Shown: one piece after another, positions 1,686 through 61,345 of the stretch | Layout of the letters: each line of letters starts with the position of its first letter | How positions within the stretch are numbered: position 1 is the first letter of the stretch | Assembly (NCBI GenBank): GCA_041665025.1 | Contig: JBAYJP010000001.1 | Span: forward strand, 16,207-80,206 | From: Candidatus Magasanikiibacteriota bacterium | GTDB taxonomy: Bacteria; Patescibacteriota; Patescibacteriia; Magasanikbacterales; UBA922 | Length of the DNA stretch: 64,000 nucleotides | Direction: 5' to 3' | Translations under genes and position numbers: made by a program | The notes under the pieces: generated by a model | Databases searched by the model: none | What the model was told of the DNA's origin: nothing | The model's input: only the letters and a program-made list of their open reading frames with translations

Positions 1686-3779
1686 ATGGAAAAAGAATCT
1701 ACAAACATCCATGATGAGCGTATTATCCGCATTGAAAAACTCAATGAGCTTAAAGCAATGGATATAAACCCCTATCCAGCACGTTGTAGACGTACACATA
1801 CTCTTGCACAGGCACGGGACATAGGCGAAGGAGAACAGGCTGTGATTGTTGGTCGAATTATGACCAAACGTACCATGGGTAAAATTATTTTCTGTCATCT
1901 CCAAGACGAAAGCGGTCGTCTGCAAGTGGTCATCAAGTCAGATGTCATTGACACAGATAGTTTTACTTTATTTGAAAAAAAAATTGATTCAGCAGATATT
2001 ATTTCAGTTGAAGGAGAACGTTTTACAACTCAAAAAGGTGAGCCATCTATTTTAGCTAAAAAATGGTTTTTGCTCTCCAAGTCTCTCCTTCCATTACCAG
2101 ATAAGTTTCACGGTCTCAGCGACGAAGAAACTCGTTATCGAAAGCGCTATCTTGATTTTTTGGTTAATGTTGAACAGAGAGAAAAAATAGTAGTGAGATC
2201 AAAAATTCTCCGTTTTATACGTACATTTTTGGAAGAAAAGGGATTTGTTGAAGTTGAAACTCCGGTTCTTGAAACTATTGCCTCAGGTGCTATGGCACGC
2301 ACATTTGATACACATCTCAATGCATATGATTTGGATGTCCATTTGCGCATATGCATGGGAGAGCTTTGGCAAAAACGGTTGCTTGTTGGTGGATTTGAAA
2401 AAACATTTGAAATGGGAAGGGCTTTTCGTAACGAGGGTGTAGATCATCAGCACAATCCTGAATTCACTATGCTTGAATATTATTGGGCGTATGCTGATTA
2501 TGAAGATAACATGAAACTACATGAAGAAATGATTCCTTATATTATTGATAAAGCAATTGGAAAATTAGAAGTTGAAGTTGATGGACATCTCATTAATTTT
2601 AAGCCACCTTATCCGCGTGTGACATTTCATGACGCGGTGCTTGAACATTCAGGAATTGATATTGATGCTTATGAAGATCCAAAAGAATTGAGAGAAGTAA
2701 TGGTAAAAAAAGGATATGATCCTGAAAATATTACTGAACGAGGAAAATTATTAGATAATTTATATAAGCAATCAGCTCGTCCAAAGATTATACAACCTAC
2801 ATTTGTTTTGAATTATCCTGTTGAATTAAAACCTCTCGCAAAACTTTCTTTAAATCCGCACTACACGGAGATGTTTCAACTAATTGTGAATGGTTTTGAA
2901 TTGAGTAATTCATATACTGAATTAAATGATCCTCTCGATCAACGTAAGCGTTTTGAAGGCCAGACAAAAAATAAACAGCAAGGTGATGAAGAGGCAATGG
3001 AGAATGACTGGGATTATGTCGAGGCGCTTGAACATGGAATGCCACCGGCAACAGGAACAGGAATTGGTATTGATCGTTTTGCTGCACTCATCACAGGATC
3101 ACATACCTTGCGCGAAGTTACCGCTTTTCCCATCATGAAGCCGGCACCTCAAGAAATAAACAGTAATGAAACAAAACAAGTCAAAAATGATGTCAATGAA
3201 GAGCTTCCTGTGACACGAGACGAAGCATTGAGTCTCATAAAAAAATATACGAAAAAAGAAGCTAATTTAAATCATTACCTTGAATCTGAAGCAGTTATGA
3301 GAGCGTTGGCTCGGCATCTTGGGCGTAATGAAGACTATTGGGGCATGCTCGGGCTTTTGCATGATATCGATTGGGAAATTACTGAACACGACTCAACCCA
3401 ACACCTTACTAAGGCTCCTGATTTATTGCGTGAAATGAAATTTGACGAAGATTTTATTAATATCATTTTGTCGCATGGGTATGGCTTTGAATGTGCAGGC
3501 TTAAAAGATAAAAAAAGGACACAAGAACTAGAACATGCTCTTGCGTGTAGTGAGACAGTGACGGGCCTTATTTATGCGACCGCCCTTATGCGTCCGGAAA
3601 AAATAAATGGTCTTGAAGTTTCTTCGGTAAAGAAAAAATTTAAAGATAAAAAATTTGCAGCCAATGTTTCTCGGGAAGTAATTCTTGAATGTGAAAAAAT
3701 TGGGTTAACACTCGATAATTTTTTACAGATAGCGATCGACGCCATGAAAAAAATTGCTCCAAAAATAGGTTTAATTTAA
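1686..3779 (+). CDS. lysS: Lysyl-tRNA synthetase (class II) fused to a C-terminal HD-domain (YqeK-like) hydrolase module
   Basis: Class II aaRS motifs (FEMGRAFRNEGVDHQHNPEFTMLEYY, GIGIDR). About 190 extra C-terminal residues carry H...LLHDIDW...H...D HD-domain signatures. Confidence 0.85.
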   Translation: MEKESTNIHDERIIRIEKLNELKAMDINPYPARCRRTHTLAQARDIGEGEQAVIVGRIMTKRTMGKIIFCHLQDESGRLQVVIKSDVIDTDSFTLFEKKIDSADIISVEGERFTTQKGEPSILAKKWFLLSKSLLPLPDKFHGLSDEETRYRKRYLDFLVNVEQREKIVVRSKILRFIRTFLEEKGFVEVETPVLETIASGAMARTFDTHLNAYDLDVHLRICMGELWQKRLLVGGFEKTFEMGRAFRNEGVDHQHNPEFTMLEYYWAYADYEDNMKLHEEMIPYIIDKAIGKLEVEVDGHLINFKPPYPRVTFHDAVLEHSGIDIDAYEDPKELREVMVKKGYDPENITERGKLLDNLYKQSARPKIIQPTFVLNYPVELKPLAKLSLNPHYTEMFQLIVNGFELSNSYTELNDPLDQRKRFEGQTKNKQQGDEEAMENDWDYVEALEHGMPPATGTGIGIDRFAALITGSHTLREVTAFPIMKPAPQEINSNETKQVKNDVNEELPVTRDEALSLIKKYTKKEANLNHYLESEAVMRALARHLGRNEDYWGMLGLLHDIDWEITEHDSTQHLTKAPDLLREMKFDEDFINIILSHGYGFECAGLKDKKRTQELEHALACSETVTGLIYATALMRPEKINGLEVSSVKKKFKDKKFAANVSREVILECEKIGLTLDNFLQIAIDAMKKIAPKIGLI

Positions 3780-15974: not shown

Positions 15975-17444
15975 TTATAACATGCTAAGAGCGTTCTTAA
16001 CGCGATCGAGTGTTTTTTCTTTACCAAGTGCCACAGCAATCTCGAGAGGGCCTGGGGAATTCTTTTGTCCTGAGAGTGCGACACGCATAGGCCATAAGAC
16101 ATCCCCATTTCCCCATGCCTTCTCTTTAATCCAGGGCAGGATCTGTTTTTCCAGTGTTTCCTTAGACCACTCCCCCTCTAAACTATTCAAAAATTCAAGC
16201 AATGCGATTAATTTTTCTTTTGTCTGTTCTTTGGTAGATTTTTTCCACACAAGAAGTTCTGCTTCGTAGTCTAGTGTATTGGAAAAAATGAATGTGACAT
16301 TTTCTACCAGTTCGACAAGAGTAGACGCTCTCCCCTGCTCCAGTGCAACTACATCCCGAATCCCGAATCCCGAATCCGGAATCTTAAGACTTTCTTTTTC
16401 AAAAAAAGATTTACATCTTTCCGCTAGCTCTGCAGAATCAAGACTCATAATATACTGCTTATTGTACCAATTCAATTTTTCACGATTAAACACAGCCGCA
16501 GGCTTATGTACTTTACTAAAATCAAATTCCTTTTCAAGTTCTGCCAAACTAAAAATTTCTTTTTCTCCACCAGGGTTCCAACCTAAAAATGCAATAAAAT
16601 TAATGATTGCTTCTGGTAGATAACCTTTCTGTTTAAAATCTTCAACTGATACGTCTCCATGTCGTTTACTTAATTTTTGTTTTTCTTCATTTATAAGCAT
16701 GGAAAGATGGCCGAACTGTGGCAATTCCCAACCAAACATGTTGTATAAGGTAATATGCTTAGGTGTTGAAGGCAACCATTCTTCACCACGGATAACATGG
16801 GTAACTTCCATAAGGTGGTCATCTACAACAACGGCTAAATGATAAGTTGGGAATCCATCAGCCTTAACGAGAACTTGATCATCGGCTAATTCATTCTTAA
16901 ATTCAACTTTCCCTCGTACCATGTCGTCTACGACCGTAACCCCAGTTTTTGGCATTTTCATGCGCATGATACACTTCTCCCCTGCCGTAACGCGTTTTTG
17001 AGCCTCTACAACGTCTAAATCTCGACAATGACCATCATAACCCGTAGGCATTTTATTTAATTCTTGATATTTTCTAACTTCCTCAAGACGTTCTTTACTA
17101 CAAAAACAATAATATGCATGACCTTGCTCAATGAGCTGATTAGCGTATTTTTTGTAAATATCCAAACGCTGTGATTGTATATATGGCCCTTTATCACCTT
17201 TTTGAATAACTTTTCCTTCATCATTTACATCAACGCCTTCATCAATACTAATTCCTGCCCATGTGAGTGAATTAATCATATTTTCAGTGCCACCCTCAAC
17301 AAATCGCTCCTGGTCAGTATCTTCTATACGCATCATAAAGATACCACCATTTTTTTTGGCAAATAAATAAGAATATAGAGCAGTACGAAGACCTCCTACA
17401 TGTAGAAAACCGGTTGGACTTGGGGCAAAACGTGTTTTGATCAT
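15975..17444 (-). CDS. gltX: Glutamyl-tRNA synthetase
   Basis: Class I HIGH-like motif (PSPTGFLHVGG) and KLSKR motif. Contains an in-frame (TCCCGAA)x3-4 heptamer repeat at 16354-16381. Confidence 0.9.
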   Translation of the reverse strand: MIKTRFAPSPTGFLHVGGLRTALYSYLFAKKNGGIFMMRIEDTDQERFVEGGTENMINSLTWAGISIDEGVDVNDEGKVIQKGDKGPYIQSQRLDIYKKYANQLIEQGHAYYCFCSKERLEEVRKYQELNKMPTGYDGHCRDLDVVEAQKRVTAGEKCIMRMKMPKTGVTVVDDMVRGKVEFKNELADDQVLVKADGFPTYHLAVVVDDHLMEVTHVIRGEEWLPSTPKHITLYNMFGWELPQFGHLSMLINEEKQKLSKRHGDVSVEDFKQKGYLPEAIINFIAFLGWNPGGEKEIFSLAELEKEFDFSKVHKPAAVFNREKLNWYNKQYIMSLDSAELAERCKSFFEKESLKIPDSGFGIRDVVALEQGRASTLVELVENVTFIFSNTLDYEAELLVWKKSTKEQTKEKLIALLEFLNSLEGEWSKETLEKQILPWIKEKAWGNGDVLWPMRVALSGQKNSPGPLEIAVALGKEKTLDRVKNALSML

Positions 17445-18199
17445 AAATATGACATTAAAATCCCTGCAGAAACTGCAACATTTAGAGATTCTGCCTCTCC
17501 TCCACCTGGGATAGTATACCGTTCATCAACCAATTCATCAAGCTCTGATCTAATGCCGTGAGATTCGCTTCCAAATAGATAGACCGTCTTCTTCACAGGC
17601 TTAAGCGTATCAATATTTTTTCCCTTTGTATCCAACGCTTTGACCTTGTACCCAAAATCATTTTTTAGCTTTACAATTGAATTAACTAAATGGTCTGACT
17701 CAAAAATATTGAGATGAAAAATAGAACCCATAGTACTGCGAACTACTTTTTCATTATACGGGTCAACAGAATCTTCTGATAAAAGAATATTTTTTACACC
17801 AAACCAGTCTGCTGTGCGTATTATGGTTCCTAAATTACCAGGGTCTTTGACCCCATCGAGACATATAATTGGTCCTTCTACTAGATCTTCTAAATAAAAT
17901 TCTGGTTGTGAAATTACTATCAACATTCCGGGGAATGTATCTGTTGTTTTTATCTCGTCGACTTCTTTTCTACCGCAAAATTCAATTGGAATACTTTTTA
18001 TGTTCAATAGTTTTATTATTTTTTGTATGTCTTCTTCATCCCTACGAATGCCTTCAACAACAGCCAAAATGACTTCTGCGTCTGCAGTAAGTGCTTCTTC
18101 CACACCCTTTATACCTTCCACAACAAACTCTTTAAATTCTCGCCTGTATTTCTTTTGTTGGAGTTGATTAAGATGTTTGATAATTTTGTGTGATAGCAT
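17441..18199 (-). CDS. TrmH/SpoU-family RNA 2'-O-methyltransferase (RlmB-like)
   Basis: SPOUT fold motifs (GNLGTIIRTA, LFGSESHG). Confidence 0.75.
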   Translation of the reverse strand: MLSHKIIKHLNQLQQKKYRREFKEFVVEGIKGVEEALTADAEVILAVVEGIRRDEEDIQKIIKLLNIKSIPIEFCGRKEVDEIKTTDTFPGMLIVISQPEFYLEDLVEGPIICLDGVKDPGNLGTIIRTADWFGVKNILLSEDSVDPYNEKVVRSTMGSIFHLNIFESDHLVNSIVKLKNDFGYKVKALDTKGKNIDTLKPVKKTVYLFGSESHGIRSELDELVDERYTIPGGGEAESLNVAVSAGILMSYL

Positions 18200-18306
18200 A
18201 TATTATGTTGATAATTATTTTCTACTCAGCGCTTGACTTAAAGGTAAGTATAACAAATACTTGTGCCACGAGCGACCCGTCTCGCATAGGTAGTAGGAGG
18301 AAAAAG

Positions 18307-18543
18307 ATGGCCGTCTCAGTGCAAGTGATTCGACAGATGATCGAACAGGCAAAACACTCGCATCGTGTACTCCGTATTGTGCACGCACACAACGGAGACC
18401 CCCGTGAGTGTGTCAACGATGAACTGAATCCCAGACACGCCCAGGTTCGAGGTGAACTCGTAGTGTGTCTCCAGGGTCCTGACATCGCTGTCTCCGCGAT
18501 CGTCTGTGTGGAGCTGGTGTGGAACCAGCCCCTGTGCAGCTGA
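18307..18543 (+). CDS. Small hypothetical protein (78 aa) encoded in a GC-rich foreign-looking island
   Basis: Perfect AGGAGG Shine-Dalgarno 6 nt upstream of the ATG, C/G-ending codon usage unlike neighbours, followed by a strong terminator. Confidence 0.3.
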   Translation: MAVSVQVIRQMIEQAKHSHRVLRIVHAHNGDPRECVNDELNPRHAQVRGELVVCLQGPDIAVSAIVCVELVWNQPLCS

Positions 18544-18568
18544 ACTGTTGTACGTGAACGTGTCGTCG

Positions 18569-18607
18569 CCCCCACCAGTGTTTTCACTTGGTGGGGCTTC
18601 GTTTTTA
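18569..18607 (+). terminator. Rho-independent terminator (plus-strand orientation)
   Basis: CCCCCACCAGTG-tttt-CACTTGGTGGGG hairpin followed by TTCGTTTTT. Confidence 0.6.
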
Positions 18608-19366
18608 AGGAGCTTTTTTAAAAACATTTAAAAATAAAAAAAATAATGTTGCCTTTATTATTCTCCCTATTCGCTTTGGTTCATATAATAACCGAAACAA
18701 CCACTCCAAACCAATTTTTCTCATCCATGCCGGAGCTCGTTTCTTCATGCCTGCAGTATAGTCAAATGCTCCGCCGACACCCATTGCAATTTTTACACTT
18801 GGCAAATCTTTTAGATTCTCATGAATCCATCTTTCTTGCTTCACATGCCCGAATGCGATGAACAATATATCTGGCTGAGCCATGGTTATCTCTGCTATTA
18901 ATTCATCGTTTTTTTCTTTATCATATTTTAATTGGTAATTAGCAACTAGTAATTTATGTCCCCGGTGAAGCCCAGCGATTTTTAAATTTGGGAACTTATT
19001 TTGAATTACTAATTTCAAATTACTAATTACCTCAGAGCTGTCTGACCCAAGAAAATAAACTGAATACTTTTTTTGTTCAGCAAGTTTGCATATATCCAAC
19101 ATAAAATCTACGCCGGGAATTCGCTCTATCTTTTCTCTTGAAACAAGTTGTATACCTCGTCCATCACAAATATTTAGATCACTTGAGTTGAGAATATCCT
19201 TAAATTCTCTATCTTTTTGGGCGTCAACGAGCATTTCAGGATTGGGTGTAAATATCTTATATTGTTTGTTAGATTCTAAAAATTCAGCAACCTTCTGAAG
19301 TGCTTTTGATTTATCTAGTATATCAATACGAACATCTAAAATTTTTATAAAATCCTGGTTCATCAT
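18605..19366 (-). CDS. WecB/TagA/CpsF-family glycosyltransferase (N-acetylmannosaminyltransferase-like)
   Basis: Family pattern throughout (ICDGRGI...AFGHVKQERW...GVGGAFD); an internal Met is taken as the start. Confidence 0.75.
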   Translation of the reverse strand: MMNQDFIKILDVRIDILDKSKALQKVAEFLESNKQYKIFTPNPEMLVDAQKDREFKDILNSSDLNICDGRGIQLVSREKIERIPGVDFMLDICKLAEQKKYSVYFLGSDSSEVISNLKLVIQNKFPNLKIAGLHRGHKLLVANYQLKYDKEKNDELIAEITMAQPDILFIAFGHVKQERWIHENLKDLPSVKIAMGVGGAFDYTAGMKKRAPAWMRKIGLEWLFRLLYEPKRIGRIIKATLFFLFLNVFKKAP

Positions 19367-19427
19367 GGAAATTCTAGTAATCTGTGTTTTGTAAAATTTT
19401 GAACACAGACCACCAAGATCGCCAGGA

Positions 19428-19991
19428 TCAACCATGATTTGTCAATCGATAACTCTCCACTATTGAATAGGATGATCCTTCAATAGTCAGTTTACTCTCC
19501 ATAATCTCTATCGAATCAACCTGCCATGACACATTTTCTAAAACGATATCTTGTAACCCAGCCAATTTGAAACCCATCTTATTTCTTCCAAGCGTTATAT
19601 GTGGCTTCCAAATCTTTAAATCGACACTAATCCCCTTATTAACCAAAGCATCGGTTAATTCTTTCTGTAAACGATTACTGATTCGAGAATGATCAAAAAC
19701 TTTTGCTATAATAACTTTTGGATGTTGTAAATCTGGAAATGCATCAATTTTATCAAGCTCAAATGAGATGGAGTTATATTTTATTGCGAGGTCTCTTACT
19801 TTTTCCCTTACTATATCAAGGATATTATCCTCAATTTCTCCTAAAAATTGTACTGTGATATGAAGTCCATCCAGGTTTGTCCAATTCACGCGGATATGTC
19901 TATTTTTATCTTTAAGGGTGTTCTGTACTATTTCCAGTGCTTCTTTTGCCTTATCGGATATATAAAAAGAGATAAATATCCTTCTTGACAT
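19428..19991 (-). CDS. 2H-family RNA 2',3'-cyclic phosphodiesterase / 2'-5' RNA ligase (LigT/ThpR)
   Basis: Two H-x-T/S-x motifs (LHITVQFLG, PHITLGR). Confidence 0.7.
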   Translation of the reverse strand: MSRRIFISFYISDKAKEALEIVQNTLKDKNRHIRVNWTNLDGLHITVQFLGEIEDNILDIVREKVRDLAIKYNSISFELDKIDAFPDLQHPKVIIAKVFDHSRISNRLQKELTDALVNKGISVDLKIWKPHITLGRNKMGFKLAGLQDIVLENVSWQVDSIEIMESKLTIEGSSYSIVESYRLTNHG

Positions 19992-43331: not shown

Positions 43332-43480
43332 ATAATATAAAATAATTTGAGTACAAATAATCTCATAAACCAAACTCATTGTCAAAGAAAATTCTGTTTT
43401 TGTTCATGAAAACAAAAAACCTTTATAAAGGTTTTTTGCGAGCTCGTCGGGCCGGATTCGAACCGGCGACCAATTGGTTA

Positions 43481-44038
43481 CACTTATCTACTGCTTACGC
43501 AATAGCGTGGACTATCTCATTCACCTTTCCTAGGTGATAGGGCGCTTGTGTTGGATTATTGCTGGGACTCACCAACTAGTCTCTGCACCTGCCTTCGCTA
43601 AAACTACACATATGTAGCATCCCAGCGAAGGATTGGCTCAGGATTACCCCGCCATGACGGGGCTCCCCTGAATTCACCCTATTTTTCAATCCCAATTTCT
43701 TGGGAAAGCTGCACTATACCTGCATGAACCTCACGGTGACAATTAGCACAAAGCATTACGCATTTGTCTAACTCTTTTACTACTCTTGACCAAGCCCTAG
43801 TCAATCCATCTTTGGATATGCCAAACTCTTTTTGCTTAGCGTCAAGATGATGGAAATCAAATGCTTCTAGGCATTTATGATAACCACATATCATGCATTT
43901 GCCGCCTTTGTACTCAACAGCCATTGCTCGGATTTTTCTTCTCCGTTTATCAACAGCTTGAATGAGATACTTGGCACGGACACGGTATATTCTTTTGTCT
44001 TTTACCATAATAACATATTATAGCAAAGACTGTGTTCT
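43481..44038 (-). ncRNA. Group I self-splicing intron (within the tRNA-Asn gene) carrying a homing endonuclease ORF
   Basis: Q-like GUAAUCCUGAGCC, R-like GUGCAGAGACUAGU and S-like GAGAUAGUCCAC core elements are visible. Intron ends in G and the 5' exon ends in U. Confidence 0.6.
43679..44008 (-). CDS. HNH homing endonuclease (intron-encoded)
   Basis: CxxC...HH...N...CxxCH HNH/zinc-finger pattern (CMICGYHKCLEAFDFHHLD...CANCHREVH); located inside the intron. Confidence 0.7.
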   Translation of the reverse strand: MVKDKRIYRVRAKYLIQAVDKRRRKIRAMAVEYKGGKCMICGYHKCLEAFDFHHLDAKQKEFGISKDGLTRAWSRVVKELDKCVMLCANCHREVHAGIVQLSQEIGIEK

Positions 44039-44183
44039 ACAGCCAACTGCTCTACCGCTGAGCTACCGACGAATATAACAGCAAATAGTATACAAACTAT
44101 ACCGATTTATGTCAATACAGTGCATATAACTTGAAAAATTGCCTATATACAGGTATACTTGTGGAGTTATTAAAATAAATTTC

Positions 44184-57589: not shown

Positions 57590-57795
57590 ATTTACTGATA
57601 CACTCCATCTAGTTACAACTCACCACTATATCTGCTGGAAGAGGGTGCAAGTCCCTCACTGTGCCGCAACGGTATTCTCCGATTTAAATTCGGGGTCAGT
57701 CCGATCTTCAGATATGGTTTATTGCGTGGTTGCCAAAGGCAACGTCACGCAGTAATCCCGAGCAGGAACTTGTATTTTTTGAAACGTACATCAAA
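57590..57795 (+). ncRNA. Candidate cobalamin (B12) riboswitch
   Basis: GGAAGAGGGUGCAAGUCCCUCACUGU core resembles the conserved GGUGnnAnUCC...CCACUGU cobalamin-aptamer elements, and a degenerate AGUCCGA..CAGA B12-box-like stretch follows. Positioned in the 5' leader of DUF4430 genes. Confidence 0.4.
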
Positions 57796-57836: not shown

Positions 57837-58343
57837 ATGAAAAAACTACTCCTATTGTTTTCATTACTGGTCTTATTGAGTGGATGTTCTTTGCAAAAGA
57901 CTATAACACAACCATCAGTGAACAACGAGCAACAAGCAACTAGAACAAACAACAACCAACCGTCGAACGCTGATAATCGATCGTCAATTACCTCTAATTA
58001 TGAGTTACCCGTTACGAGTACACAAAAAACCATAGATACTCCAACACAAATAATCATCCCCGAGACACAACTCAAAATCAACAGCATCATCTATCCCCTC
58101 ACCCCAGGCAAAAACGTCTATGATGCGATGGCAGAACTTTCCCAAGTTTCATCACAACCCTTTATATTTTCTACCAAAAATTATCCAGGCATGGGACAAT
58201 TTGTAGAAGAAATAAATGGGATTAAAAATGATTTCAAGCAAAACAAATACTGGATTTATTACATCAACAACAAATCAGCCATCGCGGGCATTTCACAATA
58301 TATTATTCAGCAGGGGGACATAATCGAATGGAAGTATGAATAA
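57837..58343 (+). CDS. DUF4430-domain lipoprotein (transcobalamin beta-domain-like B12-binding module)
   Basis: Lipobox LSGCS. C-terminal pattern GQFVEEINGI...KYWIYYINN...GDIIEWKYE typical of DUF4430. Confidence 0.55.
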   Translation: MKKLLLLFSLLVLLSGCSLQKTITQPSVNNEQQATRTNNNQPSNADNRSSITSNYELPVTSTQKTIDTPTQIIIPETQLKINSIIYPLTPGKNVYDAMAELSQVSSQPFIFSTKNYPGMGQFVEEINGIKNDFKQNKYWIYYINNKSAIAGISQYIIQQGDIIEWKYE

Positions 58344-61118: not shown

Positions 61119-61305
61119 AATGTATACAGCTGATTCTCTTCCTGCTCACATTATTGATGATATGCAAAGAAGACAAAAAGAAAGATGGGACAGACACCGA
61201 CAACAGCCATCTGTTGATGATGCCCCTCCACCTGGTTACGAACCTGAGGAGGAAAGAAGAGATGGAGGACAACCACGTGGACCAACAGAAATAGACATGA
61301 CCTAA
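61108..61305 (+). CDS. Small charged Pro-rich hypothetical protein
   Basis: ORF between genes, followed by the terminator at 61317-61345. Confidence 0.25.
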   Translation: MSDKMYTADSLPAHIIDDMQRRQKERWDRHRQQPSVDDAPPPGYEPEEERRDGGQPRGPTEIDMT

Positions 61306-61316
61306 AAAATTATAAT

Positions 61317-61345
61317 AAAACCACCCTATCAAGGTGGTTTTTACT
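61317..61345. terminator. Bidirectional rho-independent terminator
   Basis: AAACCACC-ctatcaa-GGTGGTTTTT. Confidence 0.6.

Follow-up and report, generated by a model that had tools for sequence, protein, structure and literature searches.

A GC-rich island opposite the TagA and TrmH genes of 'Candidatus Magasanikbacteria' that probably encodes a fast-evolving orphan protein

A stretch of 64,000 nucleotides (positions 16,207 to 80,206 of contig JBAYJP010000001.1, assembly GCA_041665025.1) from a low-GC member of 'Candidatus Magasanikbacteria', in the candidate phyla radiation (CPR), carries a short GC-rich island on its plus strand. This whole stretch is called the window below; its GC content is 36.9%, and positions are counted from its first letter. 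The island lies between two minus-strand genes, those of a WecG/TagA-family glycosyltransferase and a SpoU/TrmH-family RNA methyltransferase. It is probably a self-contained unit placed antisense in a LigT-TagA-TrmH-GltX operon and coding for a real cytosolic protein of 78 residues that belongs to a fast-evolving orphan family. The island is best read as a protein gene rather than a known noncoding RNA (ncRNA). As a new small gene it is well supported; it does not amount to a system of a new kind.

Structure and coding evidence of the island

The GC maximum of the window is found at 18250-18636, the sole stretch that exceeds 0.55 in 150-nt windows. The GC content in these windows peaks at 0.607 at position 18429, which is 4.3 standard deviations (sd) above the window mean of 0.369 (sd 0.055). 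In 200-nt windows it is 0.54-0.58 across 18300-18599, compared with 0.30-0.42 nearby. The island as a whole has a GC content of 0.56 versus 0.37 and shows the atypical composition expected of a recently acquired genomic islet.

The unit begins with a σ70-like promoter at 18233-18261 (TTGACT and AATACT separated by 17 nt), a candidate by its match to the consensus alone (9 of 12 positions in the promoter scan). The promoter region is AT-rich, with a GC content of 0.32, and the GC-richness begins directly downstream of it. Related loci, numbered with the prefix L, were gathered via the TrmH protein from genomes, metagenomes and contigs encoding its closest homologues. By eye, a TTGAC(A/G/T)-type -35 sequence and a -10-like box are located at the equivalent position in L002, L065 and L149, and the equivalent -35 position in L144 reads TTGCAA. 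Transcription of the island would start at about 18268. The predicted 5' untranslated region (UTR, 18268-18306, GC 0.54) contains the Shine-Dalgarno (SD) sequence AGGAGG at 18295-18300, and the segment 18295-18309, AGGAGGAAAAAGATG, has the form AGGAGG-N6-ATG. The pattern AGGAGG-N4-9-ATG occurs at three places on the two strands of the 64 kb, the island's included. The coding sequence (CDS, 18307-18543, plus strand) is an SD-led frame of 78 codons ending with the stop codon TGA at 18541-18543, and its product, which starts with MAVSVQVIR, has a mass of 8.7 kDa and a pI of 6.5.

The 3' UTR with its intrinsic terminator spans 18544-18606. The terminator hairpin (18570-18596) is followed by CTTCGTTTTT and has a folding energy of about -19 to -21.5 kcal/mol (z -4.0); the sequence downstream of the stem is CUUCGUUUUU. 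The T-run at 18602-18606 shares two nucleotides with the stop codon of the TagA-like gene at 18605-18607. The terminator was not called by a simple terminator scan because its T-run begins 6 nt past the stem. The same layout of a hairpin followed by (C/A)TTCG-N-TTTTT, with compensatory changes in the stem, is found in L002, L144 and L065.

The GC content of the 78-codon open reading frame (ORF) at codon positions 1, 2 and 3 is 0.72, 0.36 and 0.62 (chi-squared p 2e-5). The value for the third position (GC3) is 7.5 sd above that of the host genes, since the 57 window ORFs that reach 150 aa or more give 0.32 ± 0.04 with a maximum of 0.40. The protein contains a single Lys and 6 Arg; in host proteins Lys accounts for 9.6% of the residues and Arg for 4.2%. 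These values agree with a preliminary description of the same DNA, which had pointed to the jump in GC content, to the perfect SD-led ORF, to a strong plus-strand terminator on the stop of the convergent TagA-like gene, and to composition, translation signals and orientation unlike the host context. The description had also taken the overlapping frames to be compositional artefacts and the plus-strand ORF to be the candidate gene, and this is confirmed by the comparison with L065 given below, in which only the SD-led frame is conserved.

The length of the ORF is no evidence here, because stop codons are rare in GC-rich DNA and the island is overlapped by three more long ORFs: two minus-strand ones of 121 aa and 103 aa, and a plus-strand extension of 117 aa. 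The GC content of the codon positions is supportive only. Position 2 has the lowest GC content in seven of eight island ORFs from the window and related loci (significantly so for six of them), and purines are enriched at position 1 of all eight. However, this measure cannot separate the plus frame from the in-phase antisense frame, the 103-aa ORF having 0.55/0.37/0.67, and the coding case therefore rests on frame-specific conservation.

The case for the SD-led frame comes from comparing the window ORF with that of L065. The two proteins align over 45 residues (BLASTP E 5e-4), with a Smith-Waterman score of 47 against 22 ± 4 in shuffles (z 6.2-6.5). Among same-strand pairs of frames the +0/+0 pair alone stands out (z 6.5, the next being 2.3), and the antisense pairs stay below 1. 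No nucleotide similarity between the interiors of these two islands was found by blastn. The nucleotide identity of the aligned codons at positions 1, 2 and 3 is 0.45, 0.64 and 0.31, a pattern which is read as selection on the protein together with saturation at synonymous positions. In all eight islands an SD sequence and a start codon follow just past the promoter, and the stop codon is located 0-50 nt ahead of the terminator.

Close variants of the window's own island were not found. The cluster of the miscalled antisense ORF described below contains the same sequence only, and the contigs with an L065-type ORF are identical or nearly so and provide no substitutions for a ratio of nonsynonymous to synonymous rates (dN/dS, omega). 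For this reason the pair L003 and L164 (97.3% identical over 2.8 kb), which carries a different island family called type B, was used. The small type-B ORF has 25 differences in 327 nt, compared with 50 in 2456 nt elsewhere (Fisher p 5e-7). Its dN of 0.053 and dS of 0.19 give an omega of 0.28 (Fisher p 0.004 for omega below 1), while GltX and TrmH of the same pair have an omega of 0.03-0.04, and its dN exceeds that of the genes on either side 13- to 25-fold. The frame conservation, the position pattern and this omega together indicate that the island genes are translated, constrained and fast-evolving.

Predicted fold of the 78-residue protein

A word-index search of 5.8 billion proteins and a phmmer search of 1.84 billion representatives gave no homologue of the 78-aa ORF, and the three-member family profile recovered just the two members already known. 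Comparison with Pfam, PADLOC, PHROGs and the sequences of the Protein Data Bank (PDB) revealed no family, and three scans of viral contigs, as well as searches of phage records and plasmids, gave no relative. The exact 78-aa sequence is absent from a collection of 15 billion protein sequences in which a 121-aa antisense ORF of the same island is present. The protein databases are without it because the annotation pipelines call this antisense ORF instead.

The AlphaFold2 model was calculated from three sequences, with the window ORF aligned to the L065 and L149 ORFs as they stand in the databases, and has a pLDDT of 81.5 and a pTM of 0.68. It contains a helix at residues 5-18 and strands at residues 20-28, 31-40, 45-48, 51-54 and 65-72. 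The protein is predicted to have an N-terminal helix and a five-stranded bent sheet in an Sm-like (Hfq/WYL/SspB) architecture; the WYL, SspB and Hfq folds are all Sm-like barrels. The predicted helix and five strands match the order and positions of these elements in Hfq. The Foldseek search of the PDB with this model gave WYL domains (CapW, BrxR, PafBC, DriD), SspB and many Hfq chains, with probabilities of 0.80-0.97 for WYL and SspB, TM-scores of 0.5-0.64 and E-values of 0.15-1. Matches in BFVD were to SspB, WYL-domain and small unknown phage proteins, with similar scores. The model of the ORF in the same slot of L144 has low confidence (pLDDT 62) and the same order of elements. Nearly all of its top 50 fold matches are Hfq, at 18-22% identity and E 0.2-0.6.

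The protein resembles Hfq in its size, within about 70-100 aa, and in being the product of a free-standing small gene, and Hfq chains are among its best fold matches. Unlike the core RNA chaperone Hfq, the island gene is very fast-evolving and is present or absent among close relatives. Sequence profiles do not place it with Hfq (PF17209) or LSm proteins: there is no Pfam match, and direct reading of the window ORF finds neither the Sm2 motif [YF]KHAI nor the proximal-face residues Q8, F/Y42, K56 and H57. The L144 ORF has FNQIVSV at the place corresponding to Sm2. In Foldseek the window model is matched best by WYL domains and SspB, with weak E-values. However, known WYL domains are fused to a winged helix-turn-helix (wHTH) domain, while the island protein is a stand-alone chain with no defence genes nearby. 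It gave no Pfam match to the WYL domain (PF13280), has no wHTH fusion and, with 78 aa, contains no other domain.

Islands in related genomes and composition of the transcript

A GC-rich gap of 300-413 nt between TagA and TrmH is present in five Magasanikbacteria genomes, those of the window, L002, L144/L145, L149 and L065. The TrmH proteins of the carriers are 61-68% identical to that of the window. The slot is empty in nine others (L146, L148, L150, L153, L064, L155, L158, L066 and L067), where TagA and TrmH abut or overlap (-23 to 79 nt) and no remnant of an island is seen. In a rough neighbour-joining tree of TrmH the carriers are mixed with five non-carriers in one clade. In a separate clade (L003, L068, L069 and L164), comparable islands occupy the next gap of the operon, that of TrmH and GltX. 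The preliminary description had proposed that the absence of the region in close relatives be checked. The region is missing from the nine empty slots, but other members of the clade have a GC-rich island in the same slot.

The islands have a common layout: an AT-rich promoter abutting the start of the neighbouring gene, a GC-rich 5' UTR, an SD sequence, a small ORF that runs against the operon, and then a hairpin. Their terminators end with (C/A)TTCG-N-TTTTT or a similar sequence. The GC content of the eight islands is 0.17-0.42 in the 60 nt upstream of the predicted start, 0.50-0.54 in the 5' UTR, 0.51-0.61 in the CDS and 0.54-0.83 in the 3' UTR including the hairpin, and the GC3 of their ORFs is 0.52-0.78. 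Each protein contains 0-5 Lys and 6-10 Arg, in contrast to the Lys-rich proteins of the host. In pairwise shuffle tests among the island ORFs only window-L065, L003-L068 and L068-L069 are related, and hhalign comparison of the window's family (family A) with type B and with the L144 and L002 ORFs gave nothing.

The type-B genes are located at L003 3953-4279, L068 1863-2183, L069 3830-4150 and 4245-4460, and L164 1501-1827. They belong to a Magasanikbacteria-like clade, encode products of 105-108 aa and are antisense to the operon; L069 apparently has two tandem copies. The divergence between the L003 and L164 genes is about four times that of the flanks. All 25 differences exchange GC for AT or the reverse, and 20 are transitions.

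The slots around TrmH and GltX vary among the relatives, and this neighbourhood seems to gather small insertions. L149 has a free-standing GIY-YIG gene at 3337-3654, and unannotated ORFs of 118 aa and 128 aa are found in L076 (435-791) and L150 (3266-3652). An opposite-strand ORF of 65-82 aa with a CxxC motif (zf-dskA_traR, E 0.1) lies at 4869-5090 in L158 and 4869-5117 in L159, and in L158 it adjoins a DDE transposase. In L144 (and L145) a GC-rich unit (0.60) at 440-770 is located between ClpB and LigT in the orientation of LigT. It has a promoter-like site, a terminator-like hairpin that ends 10-20 nt ahead of the LigT start, and a 66-aa ORF (GC1/2/3 0.52/0.43/0.69) whose product has a hydrophobic C-terminus, and it gave no Rfam match. 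The L066 locus (6.8 kb) has a GC content of 54.5%, compared with 33-44% in its relatives, and its TrmH is 57% identical to that of the window. The genome GC content varies widely within the group of L066.

The plus strand of the window island folds better than its dinucleotide shuffles (z -3.3 to -3.4), and the minus strand gives a z of -1.8. Compared with permutations of synonymous codons, the CDS folds better in all eight islands (z -0.4 to -5.0, mean -2.3), whereas segments of host genes average -0.33 in the same test. This suggests that the excess folding of the CDS reflects selection at the level of the RNA.

The gene has several features of ORFans: it is short and evolves fast, its distribution is patchy, homologues are lacking and its annotation is poor. 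ORFans are reportedly more AT-rich than their hosts as a rule. The island gene differs in being 20 points more GC-rich than its host, as do its counterparts in seven other genomes.

Antisense placement, alternative explanations and significance

The island interrupts a run of genes in the order M23 peptidase, GltX, TrmH, island, TagA and LigT, next to a divergent ClpB. The upstream gene of the interrupted operon is the WecG/TagA-family glycosyltransferase (18605-19435, minus strand, 276 aa, Pfam PF03808), and the downstream gene is the SpoU/TrmH-family RNA methyltransferase (17441-18199, minus strand, 252 aa, assigned by Pfam). The promoter scan of the window found no minus-strand promoter-like site between the island and TrmH. 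TagA and TrmH are presumably co-transcribed, since the two genes abut in the relatives that have no island. The minus-strand side of the terminator hairpin has no T-run (U-tract), so the hairpin should not stop the operon transcript. This transcript probably crosses the island in antisense, and the two transcripts would overlap by about 340 nt.

The following explanation appears best. The 78-aa protein would bind nucleic acid, most likely RNA, and probably as an oligomer. The GC-richness would belong to the transcript in its entirety and be maintained by selection on the RNA, for a stable and highly folded mRNA that has a stem-loop at its 5' end and a strong terminator. The operon transcript would have to read through the island in antisense on its way to TrmH and GltX, and convergent transcription or pairing of the RNAs may tie the small gene's expression to the operon's. 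A nucleic acid-binding protein whose structured mRNA overlaps the operon transcript is our best guess, held with modest confidence.

Several observations weigh against this explanation. Homology of the proteins is established for window and L065 alone; the relation of window and L149 is marginal (z 2.1), and in all sequence tests the ORFs in the same slot of L002 and L144 are not detectably related to the window ORF. The dN/dS value was taken from another island family, not from the window's own gene. The transcription start, the read-through and the binding of RNA are steps which we infer. L065, L149 and L069 show a modest excess of folding (z -0.4 to -1.4), and the other GC peaks of the window are a group I intron and a candidate adenosylcobalamin (AdoCbl) riboswitch, which raises the prior for a role as RNA. 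The AlphaFold2 model came from an alignment of three sequences, with two of five models confident, and all the fold matches cited above are weak in both E-value (0.09-1) and TM-score (about 0.5-0.65). The sequence tests also go against an Sm-like protein. With hmmscan and E-values up to 10, Pfam yielded no family for any of the ORFs of the window, L065, L149, L144 and L002; neither the family-A profile nor the L144 ORF retrieved an Sm-like protein from the PDB sequences; BLASTP gave no alignment of the L144 ORF with E. coli Hfq; and hhalign against an alignment of Hfq sequences gave E-values of 0.026 for the L144 ORF and 0.78 for the family profile, with probabilities below 2%. Because the sequence tests for Hfq fail, the Sm-like fold is a lead with two partly independent supports and not a classification.

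An alternative, which is compatible with this explanation, is that the protein is made and the main selected role of the unit is antisense. A GC-rich, stable duplex with the read-through RNA would then tune TrmH-GltX or uncouple it from LigT-TagA. We regard this as possible, on the unlikely side. All eight islands in the TagA/TrmH and TrmH/GltX slots are opposite to the operon, and TagA and TrmH abut or overlap in the island-less relatives. The lack of both a minus-strand promoter-like site ahead of TrmH and a U-tract on the minus-strand hairpin fits this alternative, as does the fact that the GC-richness tracks the transcript while the protein sequence is weakly constrained. However, the ClpB/LigT island of L144 shares the orientation of its downstream gene, and a dN/dS below 1 argues that the protein itself matters. 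Antisense transcription units inside operons or between their genes are known as 'excludon'-type arrangements. The island is similar in being a convergent unit between co-oriented genes that abut in relatives, with an expected overlap with the operon transcript. It differs in being a compact protein gene with its own terminator.

It is unlikely that the product is a structured ncRNA (a small RNA, or a cis-antisense RNA to the TagA-TrmH transcript) and the ORF a by-product of GC-richness. GC-rich islands are said to mark structured RNA genes in AT-rich genomes, and in this one the next GC peaks are the intron and the riboswitch candidate. Like such RNA genes, the island is a sharp GC peak equipped with a promoter and a terminator of its own, in a window whose next two peaks outside long ORFs are structured RNAs; it differs in having a frame-conserved, translated-looking ORF and no match to an RNA family. 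An ncRNA would also be in keeping with the fold z of -3.4 on the plus strand, with UTRs as GC-rich as the CDS, with coding sequences more folded than their synonymous permutations, with the three other long ORFs that overlap the island and with the scarcely conserved proteins of the TagA/TrmH slot. By our own estimate, which is not the result of a tool, an open frame of 78 codons has a chance of about 5% at this composition. However, the similarity to L065 is frame-specific, is highest at position 2, lower at position 1 and lowest at position 3, and has no match at the nucleotide level. A strong SD at the right spacing is present in eight of eight islands, the analogous type-B gene has a dN/dS of 0.28, the AlphaFold2 fold is compact and confident, and the fold z is weak in L065, L149 and L069.

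ARAGORN found no transfer RNA (tRNA) or transfer-messenger RNA in the window, and Rfam in gathering mode gave nothing in the window or in eight relatives. This silent scan is weak evidence, because its fast filters lost a group I intron that scores above the threshold. With permissive filters Rfam gave only chance-level matches across 18100-18750 (best E 1.1), and in E-value mode, across the whole window and the loci of seven relatives, it gave nothing in the islands. The preliminary description had offered a structured GC-rich ncRNA as one possible identity. This does not stand as the principal reading, given the coding signatures and the lack of an Rfam match; what stands is that the transcript is extra-structured and that the GC-richness follows the transcript. 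The description had also named a combination that would speak against it, namely presence in all relatives, a match to a known RNA and an unconserved ORF. This combination was looked at and was not what we found.

The intron is located in a tRNA-like gene at 43441-44085 on the minus strand, which by eye is apparently interrupted close to its anticodon loop by an insert some 550-600 nt long. The 5' half of the gene is the reverse complement of about 44040-44085 (..TCGTCGGTAGCTCAGCGGTAGAGCAGTTGG..) and the 3' half is that of 43441-43487 (..GGTCGCCGGTTCGAATCCGGCCCGACGAGCTC). This inserted segment is a group I intron (RF00028, 43488-43736; score 65.6 bits, threshold 50) and carries a 109-aa ORF at 43679-44008 with a Cys/His spacing that is HNH-like by eye. 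It forms the second-highest GC peak of the window and was missed by both ARAGORN and the Rfam gathering mode. The candidate AdoCbl (B12) riboswitch at 57612-57754 on the plus strand falls just short of the threshold, with 43.5 bits where 50 are required (E 1e-4). It is located at a small GC peak and is upstream of a 168-aa ORF (57837-58343) with a lipoprotein-like N-terminus and of a 569-aa ORF.

The preliminary description had favoured a recently acquired small gene, perhaps toxin- or antitoxin-like. Import from a GC-rich donor without subsequent amelioration is, in our judgement, quite improbable. It would agree with a GC3 of 7.5 sd above the host and amino acids shifted in the same direction, with the patchy presence and clean empty sites, with the existence of GC-rich relatives such as L066, and with the other small insertions of the neighbourhood (the GIY-YIG gene of L149 and the ORFs of L076 and L150). 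However, the homologue in the same slot of L065 is saturated at synonymous sites and GC-rich nonetheless. Because its identity at position 3 is 0.31, the gene appears to have resided for long in low-GC genomes with its GC content kept, and a recent import fails to explain the composition, since the saturated window and L065 genes stay GC-rich at a host GC3 of about 0.3. The promoters are also host-like and AT-rich, the terminator layout is common to the carriers, and the island has no integrase, flanking repeats, insertion scars or att-like duplication, nor a relative in viral contigs, phage records or plasmids. With respect to mobility, neither repeats nor a recombinase nor a donor-like match was found. 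The suggestion of a toxin or antitoxin fares no better: there is no partner gene and no match to a toxin-antitoxin or defence family in Pfam, PADLOC or PHROGs, and a type II module is not seen, as a single ORF lies between promoter and terminator. Selection on the transcript, for stability, folding or antisense pairing, would be the simplest reading of the GC-richness.

That the true gene is instead the 121-aa minus-strand ORF (18222-18587) of the public pipelines is most improbable: it is the longest ORF in the island and is used in the ENA, JGI and Logan gene calls, but its GC1/2/3 of 0.44/0.62/0.55, highest at position 2, is not coding-like, its GTG start lies inside the terminator stem and has no SD, the antisense frames are not conserved with L065 (z below 1) or L149, and in the NCBI annotation of a relative either nothing or the plus frame is called there. 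We judge this ORF to be an artefact of the GC-richness.

One further small ORF was observed elsewhere in the window. An apparent 61-aa ORF (MYTADSLPAH...) at 61121-61306 on the plus strand is rich in charged residues and has near-host composition. It contains an internal AGGAGG-N9-ATG and is followed by a hairpin and a T-run at about 61320-61345.

Returning to the protein gene antisense in the operon, it illustrates a blind spot of annotation: a GC-rich small gene in low-GC CPR genomes is called on the wrong strand or omitted, and homology searches return nothing owing to the missing true protein. The composition is a puzzle of its own. An excess of about 20 points in GC content, UTRs included, persists across saturated lineages and points to selection on the RNA. 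It is conceivable, though we would not expect it, that the island represents a hidden, fast-evolving family of stand-alone Hfq/Sm-like proteins in the CPR (Magasanikbacteria), with selected GC content and folding, placed antisense in a housekeeping operon. In that case one unit would combine the gene of an RNA-binding protein with an antisense regulator, and gene callers would miss the family by picking the wrong strand. We know of no description of RNA chaperones in the CPR, and a literature search for them found none. If the Sm-like fold is correct, divergent Hfq-like proteins would exist in the candidate phyla radiation.

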